DNA from: Ferruginibacter sp.
Lineage (GTDB): Bacteria > Bacteroidota > Bacteroidia > Chitinophagales > Chitinophagaceae
DNA length: 64,000 nucleotides
NCBI GenBank assembly: GCA_046595125.1
Contig: JBKJPN010000204.1
Coordinates: forward strand, 595-64,594
Direction of reading: 5' to 3'
The notes beneath the pieces were generated by a model. That model ran no database searches. It was not told the DNA's origin and saw nothing but the letters and a program-made list of their open reading frames with translations. Shown here piece after piece: positions 30,774 through 33,391 of the stretch (the first letter of the stretch is position 1; every line of letters begins with the position of its first letter). Made by a program: the position numbers and the translations under genes.

Positions 30774-30811
30774 AGTTGCCAATTTATTACCTTTCAGCAA
30801 ATTTAACAGTA

Positions 30812-32176
30812 ATGGAACACTTAATGCAGATGCGCCGTTTTTTCGACACTGGAAAAACAAAACCATACGCCTGGCGGAAGGAACAATTGCAAAAATTGAA
30901 AGCCTCCGTAAAGAAGTATGAAAAGGAAATTCACGATGCGCTTTATGCCGACTTGAAAAAAAGCCCCGAAGAATGCTGGGTGACAGAAACTGGTTTTTTA
31001 TTATCTGAGATAAATCAGACTTTAAAGCATTTGAAAGCCTGGATACAACCCGAACTAATGCCAACTAATCTGGTTAATCTGCCTTCAAAAAGTTATGTAT
31101 TGCAGGAGCCACTTGGTGTAGTACTAGTCATCAGTCCTTGGAATTACCCTTTTCAACTATTACTTGCACCACTCGTTGGAGCTATGGCCGCAGGTAATTG
31201 TGCAGTAATTAAATCATCTGAATTTGCACCGGCTACTTCCGCTATCATGAAAAAGATGATTGAAGAAAATTTCGACAAAGAATATATTCTGTTTGTAGAA
31301 GGAGATGGTGCAACCGTTATTCCGCATATGATGAACAATTTTACTTTTGACCATATTTTTTATACCGGCAGCACCGCCGTGGGGAAAATAATTTATAAAA
31401 TGGCAGCCGAAAGACTGGTGCCTGTTACATTGGAGTTGGGCGGTAAAAGCCCGTGCGTCGTGGAAGACGATGCAAATATTAAAGTTGCGGCCAGAAGAAT
31501 TGCGATGACAAAATTCAGCAATGCCGGGCAAATGTGCGTAGCTCCCGATTACGTGTTGGTACATGAAAGTAAGAAAGAGGACTTGATTTCGGCGTTAAAG
31601 GAAACAGTTCTTGCGTTTTTCGGCGACAAAGCAGAAGGGAGTTACAATTACGGGAAGATTATCAATGAAAAGCAGTTTAACAGGCTGGTAAGTTATCTGC
31701 AGCAGGGAAATGTTTTACATGGAGGCAGGAGCGATAAAGAAAAGCTCTTTATTGAACCTACAATTGTTGATGAGGTAAGTCTTGATTCGGATTTAATGAA
31801 AGAAGAAATTTTTGGCCCAATACTGCCAATCATTTCTTTTAAAACAAAAGAAGAAGCACTTGCAATAATTGCGAACAATAAGAACCCGTTGGCGTTTTAC
31901 GTATTTACATCAAGTAAATCAAAGGAAAAAGACTGGTTGAGCTGCGTTGCATTTGGCGGCGGCTGTGTAAATAACGCCAGCTGGCATTTAACCAACCATA
32001 GCCTACCCTTTGGTGGCAGGGGATTCAGCGGCAGTGGACAGTACCACGGCAAGTATTCATTTGATACATTCAGTCACAAAAAATCAATTATGAAAACGCC
32101 AACCTGGTTCGACCCAGCAATGAAGTATCCGCCATTTAAGGGAAAGTTGAGTTTATTTAAATGGATAATAAGGTAA
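30812..32176 (+). CDS. Aldehyde dehydrogenase (ALDH3-like)
   Basis: PWNYP, FYTGST, LELGGKSP, NAGQMC, EEIFGP. Confidence 0.93.
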   Translation: MEHLMQMRRFFDTGKTKPYAWRKEQLQKLKASVKKYEKEIHDALYADLKKSPEECWVTETGFLLSEINQTLKHLKAWIQPELMPTNLVNLPSKSYVLQEPLGVVLVISPWNYPFQLLLAPLVGAMAAGNCAVIKSSEFAPATSAIMKKMIEENFDKEYILFVEGDGATVIPHMMNNFTFDHIFYTGSTAVGKIIYKMAAERLVPVTLELGGKSPCVVEDDANIKVAARRIAMTKFSNAGQMCVAPDYVLVHESKKEDLISALKETVLAFFGDKAEGSYNYGKIINEKQFNRLVSYLQQGNVLHGGRSDKEKLFIEPTIVDEVSLDSDLMKEEIFGPILPIISFKTKEEALAIIANNKNPLAFYVFTSSKSKEKDWLSCVAFGGGCVNNASWHLTNHSLPFGGRGFSGSGQYHGKYSFDTFSHKKSIMKTPTWFDPAMKYPPFKGKLSLFKWIIR

Positions 32177-32212
32177 AAACAAAATTTGTGCATTTCGTGT
32201 TTTAGTGGAAAG

Positions 32213-32686
32213 TTTGTCCCACAAAGACGCAAAGAACACAAAGAGATTCATCATTTATATTTAATTGTATGACTGAAAATGAATTAGCAACCGTTGCAGT
32301 TGATATTTGTTACAGAATTCACACGACACTTGGACCGGGTTTACTGGAAAGTGTTTATGAGGCTGCATTTGCGCATGAGTTGAAGAAAAGGGAAATTCCG
32401 TATTTTAGACAGGCTGATATTCCAGCTTATTATGATGGCGTTTTATTGGATGTAGGATTTAGGGCTGATATTATCATGGGTGGAAAACTGTTGATTGAAT
32501 TGAAATCAGTTGAGCATTTGGAAAAAGTCCATCACAAAACCGTACTTACCTATATGCGGCTAACAGAAATTAAATTGGCGATACTGGTTAATTTTAATGT
32601 TAACCTTATTAAAGAAGGAATTCATAGAAAAATTAATGGAGAATTAGAGTAATTACTTTGTGTTCTTCGTGCCTTAGTGGGACAAA
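32213..32686. mobile_element. Putative 474-bp IR-bounded cassette carrying only the GxxExxY gene
   Basis: 31-bp inverted repeats at 32213-32243 and 32656-32686 (27/31 identical) tightly flank the ORF. Confidence 0.5.
32269..32652 (+). CDS. GxxExxY protein (PD-(D/E)XK nuclease-like)
   Basis: LGPGLLESVYE motif; RADII..LIELKSV nuclease-like residues; LVNFN. Confidence 0.92.
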   Translation: MTENELATVAVDICYRIHTTLGPGLLESVYEAAFAHELKKREIPYFRQADIPAYYDGVLLDVGFRADIIMGGKLLIELKSVEHLEKVHHKTVLTYMRLTEIKLAILVNFNVNLIKEGIHRKINGELE

Positions 32687-32692
32687 AATAAA

Positions 32693-33391
32693 ATGCCATC
32701 AAAAAAAGTATATAAAAGGTTGAAGTGGATATTTGTTATCCTTTTCTTATCGGCCATCGCATTTTATACATTTGTAGAAATATCAAACAGAAATTCAAAA
32801 AATATGACAGCGAGACAAAAAGTATTAAAAGCAGTTTATCCTGTATTTATGTGGTTAGCTGGTAAGAAAGGAAAAACTGTGAACGAACTCTCAAAAGAAA
32901 AAGCATTACCTGCTGTTTCATTTTATTCTTTAAAAGATACAGCAAACAACGGTGCTGAATTTGATTTTGAAAAATTGAAAGGCAAAAAAATAATGCTGGT
33001 GAATACAGCTTCTGATTGCGGTTTTACAGGCCAGTATGATGATTTGCAAAAACTAAGTGAGCAGTTTAAAGACAAGCTTATTGTGATTGGTTTCCCTGCC
33101 AATGATTTTAAAGAGCAGGAAAAAGGCGATGATAACGATATAGCTGAATTTTGCAGGTTAAACTTTGGCGTAACGTTTCCACTGATGAAAAAAAGCAGCG
33201 TGGTTAAAGGGTCAGAACAAAATAAAATATTTAACTGGCTTAGCGACTCCACCAAAAACGGCTGGAACAACAAGCAACCTTCCTGGAATTTTTGTAAGTA
33301 TCTTGTAGATGAAGAAGGAAGGCTGATAAACTTTTTTGGATCAACCGTTGAACCACTAGGCAAAGAAATTACCGAGGCATTAAACCGATAA
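32693..33391 (+). CDS. Glutathione peroxidase family protein with N-terminal membrane anchor
   Basis: VNTASDCGFTGQY, GFPANDF, WNFCKYLVD. Confidence 0.9.
   Translation: MPSKKVYKRLKWIFVILFLSAIAFYTFVEISNRNSKNMTARQKVLKAVYPVFMWLAGKKGKTVNELSKEKALPAVSFYSLKDTANNGAEFDFEKLKGKKIMLVNTASDCGFTGQYDDLQKLSEQFKDKLIVIGFPANDFKEQEKGDDNDIAEFCRLNFGVTFPLMKKSSVVKGSEQNKIFNWLSDSTKNGWNNKQPSWNFCKYLVDEEGRLINFFGSTVEPLGKEITEALNR

Follow-up and report, generated by a model that had tools for sequence, protein, structure and literature searches.

A small nuclease-like gene between inverted repeats

Why should a small gene for a nuclease-like protein, flanked by inverted repeats, sit in the gap between two housekeeping genes, and is it a mobile element or a settled resident? 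The question is raised by a locus of Ferruginibacter sp. within the window analyzed here, a stretch of 64,000 nucleotides. The open reading frame, which encodes a GxxExxY protein of 127 amino acids, occupies positions 32269–32652 on the plus strand and lies between the genes for an aldehyde dehydrogenase (aldH, 30776–32176, plus strand) and a glutathione peroxidase that has a membrane segment at its N-terminus (gpx, 32693–33391, plus strand), both of them co-oriented with it. An earlier note on this DNA had described a 474-bp unit between two co-oriented housekeeping genes, bracketed by 31-bp inverted repeats, and had proposed a minimal self-mobile cassette analogous to RAYT/REPIN. We could confirm the unit, its length and its setting. 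The repeats at 32213–32243 and 32656–32686 are identical at 27 of 31 positions and give an inverted-repeat score of 21, far above the scores of shuffled sequences (n = 200, mean 7.8, maximum 11); they can also be drawn in a longer form of 36 nt at 83% identity (32213–32248 and 32651–32686). The distances within the unit had likewise been given correctly, with 25 nt between the left repeat and the ATG at 32269, 3 nt between the end of the TAA codon at 32652 and the right repeat, and 6 nt from there to the gpx ATG at 32693. Upstream, orthologues of aldH align only from about residue 5–15 of the listed reading frame (window 30776–30830), and its true start is therefore probably an ATG downstream of the TTG listed at 30776.

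Each arm of the inverted repeat is an inward-facing array of three heptamers of the form CRCNRAG. The left arm (32213–32248, plus strand) begins with the outer terminus TTTGTCCCAC, the outer end here being TCCCAC, and continues with the units CACAAAG, CGCAAAG and CACAAAG; the right arm (32651–32686) reads on the minus strand TTTGTCCCAC followed by CACTAAG, CACGAAG and CACAAAG. The strict 9-nt period ascribed earlier to the repeats does not hold, the CAAAG cores in the arms being spaced at intervals of 8 and 9 nt. The left arm is separated from the ATG by a spacer or 5′ leader (32244–32268, plus strand) that is poorly conserved in the alignment of orthologues. A degenerate extra array, R′ (32185–32208, plus strand), is found 8 nt behind the aldH stop codon and directly before the left arm; it is oriented like the right arm, with which (32657–32680) it is identical at 19 of 24 positions. 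R′ carries unit variants specific to the right arm (CACTAA/CACGAA/CACAAA) and is absent from the orthologous cassettes of the genomes G048 and G011, and we therefore read it as a lineage-specific duplicate of the right arm. This third copy had been noticed before and had been thought to form a hairpin with the left arm; the similarity stands, but the hairpin is unconvincing, with a folding energy of −9.1 kcal/mol (z = −1.6) that 14 of 200 shuffled sequences equal. A scan with sigma-70 promoter and terminator models, which do not cover Bacteroidota promoters, found nothing in the arms.

The GxxExxY protein as a predicted nuclease

The encoded protein matches the profiles TIGR04256 with 121.4 bits (cut-off 35) and PF13366 (PDDEXK_3) with 118 bits (cut-off 22). 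Residues Gly-24, Glu-27, Tyr-30, Asp-67, Glu-77 and Lys-79 are invariant across 25 sequences, and the predicted active site, E27/E37...D67...E77-x-K79, is complete and invariant. The AF2 model (pLDDT 95.1) has an alpha-beta fold for which the nearest solved structures are Cas4 SSO0001 and the lambda-type exonucleases, with query-normalised TM-scores of 0.51–0.58, and the protein can be described as a predicted minimal Cas4/RecB-like PD-(D/E)XK nuclease. No match was obtained in a sequence search of the PDB, in the PADLOC models of defence systems or in the PHROGs phage families. The earlier description of a PD-(D/E)XK-like protein as the sole cargo, with no DDE or HUH transposase, agrees with our annotation, in which the unit contains a single open reading frame and PF13366 is its only Pfam match. 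That family is very large, at least 7,973 of 8,000 scored candidates matching it at E ≤ 1e-10. Its function is given as ‘Unknown’ (PMC3424549) in what was the sole mention of PF13366 found in the searchable literature, where we also found no paper tying the family to arrays of this kind.

Inverted arrays bracket most GxxExxY genes

Nine GxxExxY paralogues are present in this genome (G000), and compared with the aldH–gpx protein the paralogues are only 36–41% identical. Significant inverted arms of their own were detected at no fewer than seven of the eight paralogues for which both flanks are available. Each pair of arms differs in sequence and has the same build, in which short units are repeated about three times, and among all nine paralogues we found no cassettes with common arms. 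Across a sample of the genus, arms at z ≥ 4 flank 30 of 37 GxxExxY loci, so that the enrichment of inverted repeats around homologues of the gene, anticipated in the earlier note, is seen both within this genome and beyond it. Wherever the neighbourhood could be resolved (five of five cases), the cassette lies on the same strand as both of its neighbours. In the paralogue at C145:31707–32057 the GxxExxY motif is followed closely by an in-frame TGA (GLLESSY*E), and on the evidence of its reading frame this copy is a probable pseudogene; its arms are still recognisable.

Gene-less arrays fall into classes that match resident cassettes

A census of arrays was made with the strict unit C[AG]CN[AG]AG repeated three or more times, and it covers CRCNRAG-type units only. 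It returned 39 arrays in the genome versus none in a shuffled genome. Where arrays are paired, they make up 17 gene-less foldbacks, one pair in reverse order and only three gene-bearing cassettes, and the copies without a gene thus outnumber those with one. A foldback consists of a left array, a loop of 3–24 nt and a right array, about 55–70 nt in total, and is placed 5–25 nt from the neighbouring open reading frames in narrow intergenic gaps, close behind stop codons. The flanking genes are co-oriented at nine of the 17 foldbacks, convergent at six and divergent at two. Solo arrays belong mainly to three classes of outer terminus, ACCAC (21), CCCAC (10) and ACCGC (8), and these are the ends of resident cassettes, namely those on C6 (ACCAC), on C75 (CCCAC, the aldH–gpx cassette) and at C145:5212 (ACCGC). 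The arms of one foldback (C79:8911–8965) match the arms of the aldH–gpx cassette at 25 of 29 and 26 of 29 positions.

Among 61 congeners the number of GxxExxY genes correlates with the number of arrays (rho = 0.58, P = 1e-6), in a rank correlation that ignores kinship; a simple Fisher test on the presence or absence of genes and arrays was not significant (P = 0.20), and only the rank correlation was. Eight of the 11 genomes without the gene are also without arrays. The other three carry 28 (G076), 12 (G050) and 4 (G015) arrays with no GxxExxY gene at all, the completeness of the first two being 94% and 99%, respectively. Arrays can therefore persist after loss of the gene, or something else may serve them. 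Several genomes have 5–10 GxxExxY genes but 0–2 CRCNRAG arrays, and these presumably use other unit types.

A CGC-type foldback at the junction of gapA and pgk recurs in the genomes G006, G010 and G003; its ends read AACCGC...GCGGTT, and a T-run usually follows. Foldbacks may therefore have taken on a role as terminator-like elements, and this would account for the arrays of genomes that have no gene. The gapA–pgk gap (L078–L102) is a hotspot in the genus, with two-ORF inserts of about 0.7–0.9 kb in G011 and G014 and other hairpins in G013 and G008, and it measures 17 nt in G033, a relative that belongs to another family within the same taxonomic order. At G001:C51:107–535, near a contig end, identical array pairs (CACGAAGACACTAAGGCACGAAG / CACAAAGACACGAAGACACAAAG) occur three times about 150–180 nt apart, the result either of a foldback-like unit amplified in tandem or of an error in the assembly.

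The cassette at aldH–gpx is old

The synteny of aldH and gpx is kept in about 17 congeners. A cassette lies between them in G000, G048, G011, G074, Ferruginibacter sp. SUN106 and four metagenomic genomes. The G074 copy has an intact gene and no recognisable arms; at the same site in G012 the gene has been lost, and what remains of the cassette is its two arms, the leader and ~25 nt from the start of the open reading frame. No trace of a cassette was seen at aldH–gpx in at least 12 congener genomes, which provide the empty sites that the idea of a mobile cassette had called for. Between G000 and G048 or G011, the GxxExxY gene has a dS of ~2–2.4 and a third-position identity of 0.52–0.55, like aldH. 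With synonymous sites as saturated as those of its flanks, the cassette has been resident since the species diverged; it is an old, vertically inherited unit of the same age as the species split. The dN/dS values of 0.027–0.049 for GxxExxY, 0.085 for aldH and 0.13–0.15 for gpx indicate that purifying selection acts more strongly on the protein than on the housekeeping neighbours.

Occupancy of the site is patchy. In species trees from a single gene (aldH), jgiC, which is full, is sister to G023, which is empty (support 97/95), and G048, which is full, is sister to G012 with its remnant (support 100/99); the grouping of all occupied genomes in one clade is rejected (p-AU 3.5e-5). In the gene tree the eight aldH–gpx copies are monophyletic (95/93), and losses are therefore the simplest account of this pattern. 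The closest filled/empty pair, jgiC and G023, revealed no clean excision footprint, since the empty site has an unrelated spacer of 19 nt and the filled site lacks ~105 nt of gpx 5′ coding sequence. In jgiC (L076, 2884–2930) the gpx gene beside the right arm is without the ~35-codon N-terminal membrane segment (compare window 32693–32800) that is present in both G000 and G023, and the deletion directly adjoins the end of the cassette.

Gene and arms have relocated together, but rarely

Outside the genus, proteins 79% identical to the one studied here are encoded between an amino-acid permease gene and glnA in Ilyomonas limi and at L072, and a 76% identical relative after an FAA-hydrolase gene represents a third site, known from the protein only. 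The copies in Ilyomonas limi and at L072 belong to the orthologue group of the aldH–gpx gene and share its arms. The right arm at L072, which stands at a different locus in another genome, is identical to the aldH–gpx right arm at 27 of 27 positions, and the left arm is of the same type; the two genes have only 74% nucleotide identity. This match of arms at separate loci shows gene and arms moving as a single unit. In the gene tree the copies from each insertion site group in a deep clade of their own, and the moves are therefore rare and of old date. The gene is often joined by additional foldbacks, in the orders L-gene-[L2-R] at L072, [L-R′]-gene-[L2-R] at L071 and [L-R′]-gene-R at L075; the order at aldH–gpx is [R′-L]-gene-R.

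Within the genus, the same element was not found elsewhere, all homologues of at least 74% identity being located at aldH–gpx. Neither did we find near-identical copies of the cassette among the nine paralogues of the genome. No target-site duplication is visible by eye in the printed flanks of the cassette and foldbacks, in line with what had been said of this locus before. Of the features expected of a homing endonuclease gene, presence/absence polymorphism is seen across the genus, but the gene, which ought to decay after fixation, is under strong purifying selection (dN/dS 0.03–0.05), and no homing among the resident foldbacks was observed. Relocation is thus, as far as these comparisons reach, real but rare, and self-mobilisation unproven. 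Of the idea of a self-mobile cassette, a part survives, in that gene and arms have moved together to loci in other genera; recent mobility of the aldH–gpx copy does not, given a dS saturated like that of the flanks, arms that are not shared among cassettes and the lack of precise excision in the closest filled/empty pair.

Conservation of the arms points to DNA sequence and not to an RNA stem

Strong pairing is predicted between the arms as RNA (−24.3 kcal/mol, z = −8.9), and a search of Rfam returned chance-level matches only. Over 30 cassettes, the transitions among arm mismatches comprise 28 that are compatible with pairing in the sense transcript versus 33 in the antisense transcript (P = 0.61), giving no G·U bias, and 103 of the 164 mismatches are transversions. 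Paired units carry the same base at the fourth, variable heptamer position in 40% of cases versus 38% expected (permutation P = 0.44). We therefore rejected the maintenance of the arms as an RNA stem, for want of a G·U asymmetry and with the register test null.

The sequence of the arms, by comparison, is well kept. Between G000 and G048 the left arm is identical at 28 of 29 positions, third codon positions being only ~54% identical, and the pattern CCCACAAAG-RCRCRAAG-NACACAAAG is found in the arms of 10 of 11 orthologues, with third codon positions ~50% identical. Arms that remain near-identical while synonymous sites are saturated show that the arm sequence itself is selected and not merely its pairing. 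Such conservation marks sequence-specific recognition of each unit, for which a protein would be the simplest agent.

Relation to known repeat systems

A RAYT is a small gene with inverted copies of a short repeat on either side. Away from the gene, further copies of this repeat, REP, are scattered through intergenic 3′ regions as inverted doublets; purifying selection acts on the gene, which is inherited vertically, and individual classes of the repeat are cognate to individual copies of the gene. The GxxExxY system is alike in having a gene between inverted repeats that are also dispersed as gene-less doublets (the 17 foldbacks), and in its vertical inheritance, purifying selection and cognate repeat classes. 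It is different in that the protein has a PD-(D/E)XK fold and no HUH/Y1 transposase domain, the repeat is an array of at least three degenerate heptamers where REP is a single palindrome, and a genome may hold up to 9–11 paralogues, each with its own arms. Because arms and foldbacks form classes matching resident cassettes and gene and arms have moved jointly, and because the design is family-wide, we consider the RAYT/REPIN analogy drawn in the earlier note to be apt.

The STRR repeats of cyanobacteria are heptamer arrays and are comparable as such. Transposons that have terminal inverted repeats with several subterminal binding sites are comparable too, since a short site recurs in their inverted ends and their MITEs keep these ends without a gene; the GxxExxY unit differs from them in having no recognisable transposase (DDE, HUH, serine or tyrosine) and no target duplication, identical copies or recent movement. 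The intervening sequences of 23S rRNA with their four-helix-bundle proteins (TIGR02436/PF05635) resemble it in that a gene of ~120 amino acids stands within inverted arrays of short units in a transcribed region, but their cargo is unrelated, their unit has another sequence, and the GxxExxY arms were negative in the tests for an RNA stem.

A close parallel is provided by SsnA and its NTS (SRM) repeats, SsnA being a small single-domain GIY-YIG nuclease that is site-specific for single-stranded DNA (Chenal et al. 2025, PMC11893778). In that family 42% of homologues are flanked on both sides by the cognate repeat, hundreds of gene-less NTS/SRM copies occur elsewhere, and Ssn specificity diverges together with the flanking repeats (PMC11893778). 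Both systems thus combine a small gene of nuclease fold between cognate repeats with dispersed gene-less copies. Ssn proteins are, however, of the GIY-YIG type (cd10448) and not PD-(D/E)XK, SRMs are single hairpins and not heptamer arrays, and cleavage has been demonstrated for Ssn, whereas GxxExxY is known here from its sequence and predicted fold. GGGNATC heptamer arrays have been reported from Xanthomonas and Nostoc between aligned open reading frames (Rehm et al. 2015, PMC4692102); they are enriched in non-coding DNA, prefer co-oriented gaps and positions at most 50 bp from a stop codon and are under-represented where genes diverge, and they were read as G-quadruplex formers with no gene family linked to them (PMC4692102). 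They share with the CRCNRAG foldbacks the 7-nt unit length and the genomic placement; the CRCNRAG arrays differ in forming inverted pairs tied to a specific nuclease family.

Possible explanations of the gene–array association

The comparisons establish an association between gene and arrays, selection on arms and protein, vertical persistence, rare joint relocation, decay of cassettes and cognate classes of repeats. To the reading that a nuclease and its cognate repeats have here formed a long-lived partnership, of the kind known from REP/RAYT or SsnA/NTS, we give roughly even chances of being right. On this partnership model, the arrays would be the sequence-specific binding and cutting sites of the GxxExxY nuclease they surround, with one protomer perhaps seated on each heptamer; its activity on them would, over long timescales, maintain, copy or move the arrays, and the gene itself would be expressed by read-through from the host operon. 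Counting against the model are the three genomes in which arrays persist with no GxxExxY gene, the gene-rich genomes that have few CRCNRAG arrays, the intact but arm-less gene of G074 and the four-helix-bundle genes found in a bracket of the same kind.

Three other explanations must be weighed against this one. The cassette might be an autonomous minimal transposon, whose nuclease excises the arm–gene–arm unit and reinserts it, the foldbacks being MITE-like derivatives mobilised in trans. The three loci occupied across genera, the full, partial and empty sites in the genus without a single occupied clade, the R′–L order at 32185–32248, which resembles a tandem or circle junction, the foldback termini common to resident cassettes and the G012 copy caught turning into a gene-less remnant can all be read in its favour. 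We nevertheless hold it to be unlikely. Unshared arms and divergent paralogues argue against recent transposition within the genome, a target-site duplication is not to be seen in the printed flanks, every insertion site has a deep clade of its own, dS equals that of the flanks, and a dN/dS of 0.03 over such a time is unlike that of a decaying selfish gene. Furthermore, the jgiC/G023 pair does not represent precise excision, and a hydrolytic nuclease of 127 residues has no evident strand-transfer or joining activity. A different origin would be that terminator- or REP-like hairpins of the host were colonised by selfish genes, the nuclease being a homing endonuclease that targets gene-less foldbacks. 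Such host hairpins would be expected where foldbacks are found, 5–25 nt after stop codons and rarely between divergent genes (2 of 17); the gapA–pgk foldback persists across species with a T-run behind it, arrays persist in genomes without the gene, and several unrelated small genes stand in inverted-repeat brackets. The array-bracketed cargo families differ in their unit, however (GTTTAGR for a four-helix-bundle gene, CRCNRAG for GxxExxY), the other brackets being plain inverted repeats, and a gene that reaches a new locus brings its arms along. In G012, the only directly observed transition, a cassette has become a remnant; a homing gene would be expected to spread among similar foldbacks of one genome, and yet the 10 solo arrays of the CCCAC type are empty, and the protein has stayed strongly conserved after fixation, so that we rate colonisation as quite improbable.

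We think it very improbable that the cassette is an RNA element like the 23S rRNA intervening sequences, in which the arms would pair in the aldH–gxx–gpx transcript and the stem would be cut, for example by RNase III, freeing the cassette mRNA and insulating the host operon, and in which the arms would be kept for pairing and not for sequence. The consistent co-orientation of cassettes (5 of 5), which fill an intercistronic gap, and the strong predicted pairing of the arms would suit such an element, as would the presence in this genome of four-helix-bundle genes of the intervening-sequence family in the same type of bracket. The mismatches are nonetheless without G·U bias and mostly transversions, paired units agree no better than expected, and Rfam offers no match; orthologous arms, moreover, keep their sequence with no compensatory change though neutral sites are saturated.

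If the partnership model is followed further, GxxExxY proteins would be array-reading, site-specific nucleases whose specificity co-diverges with the heptamers beside their genes, and together with the foldbacks they would form a third independent class of nuclease–repeat system in prokaryotes after RAYT/REPIN and Ssn/NTS; in this class the arrays would be maintained, copied or now and then relocated by a minimal nuclease of the Cas4 type. We put this wider generalisation forward tentatively, as something possible rather than probable. Were it true, a function would be found for a very large orphan family and many of the intergenic ‘heptamer repeat’ arrays of bacteria would be explained. Should the nuclease cut the arrays, evolution would have arrived here independently at a counterpart of REP/RAYT and Ssn/NTS, and small nucleases of sequence-programmable specificity might be obtained from this source. 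The locus offers the concrete hypothesis that the protein reads CRCNRAG arrays, for which three cassettes with distinct termini and their cognate foldbacks serve as natural controls in the same genome. It also shows the bracket to be selected DNA sequence and not an RNA stem, and the module to be an old, strongly constrained resident and not a fast-moving parasite.

Other small genes inside inverted repeats

A scan of the whole genome for inverted repeats 250–1200 nt apart returned mostly small bracketed genes, which encode GxxExxY, four-helix-bundle and GIY-YIG proteins, two RAYT-like Y1 transposases and a DUF559 endonuclease. The four-helix-bundle genes (TIGR02436, the 23S-IVS-protein family), three in number, all lie inside inverted arrays (C243:6105–6615, C88:9537–10017 and C206:5475–5795), the units being GTTTAGR, GTCATTG and an AT-rich unit. 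As these genes have no known nuclease activity and occupy the same bracket, the architecture alone does not require a nuclease. There are 16 GTTTAGR arrays in the genome, only 2 of which flank a four-helix-bundle gene, with 14 elsewhere; two arrays bracket an ordinary hexapeptide acetyltransferase gene (C243:8187–8987). The GIY-YIG genes (79–118 amino acids; C115:13549–14008, C235:5289–5733, C237:14503–15193 and C65:2182–2562) are located between palindromic hairpin repeats such as GGAACCTGCCTGCCGGCAGGCAGGT, which is the arrangement published for the Ssn nucleases, and this same hairpin is also present upstream of the GxxExxY paralogue on C7. The RAYT-like Y1 (IS200-like) genes (C12:10365–11140 and C44:534–1211) are each enclosed in their own inverted repeats of 24–38 nt, as is the gene for the DUF559 (Vsr-like) endonuclease (C82:4066–4563).
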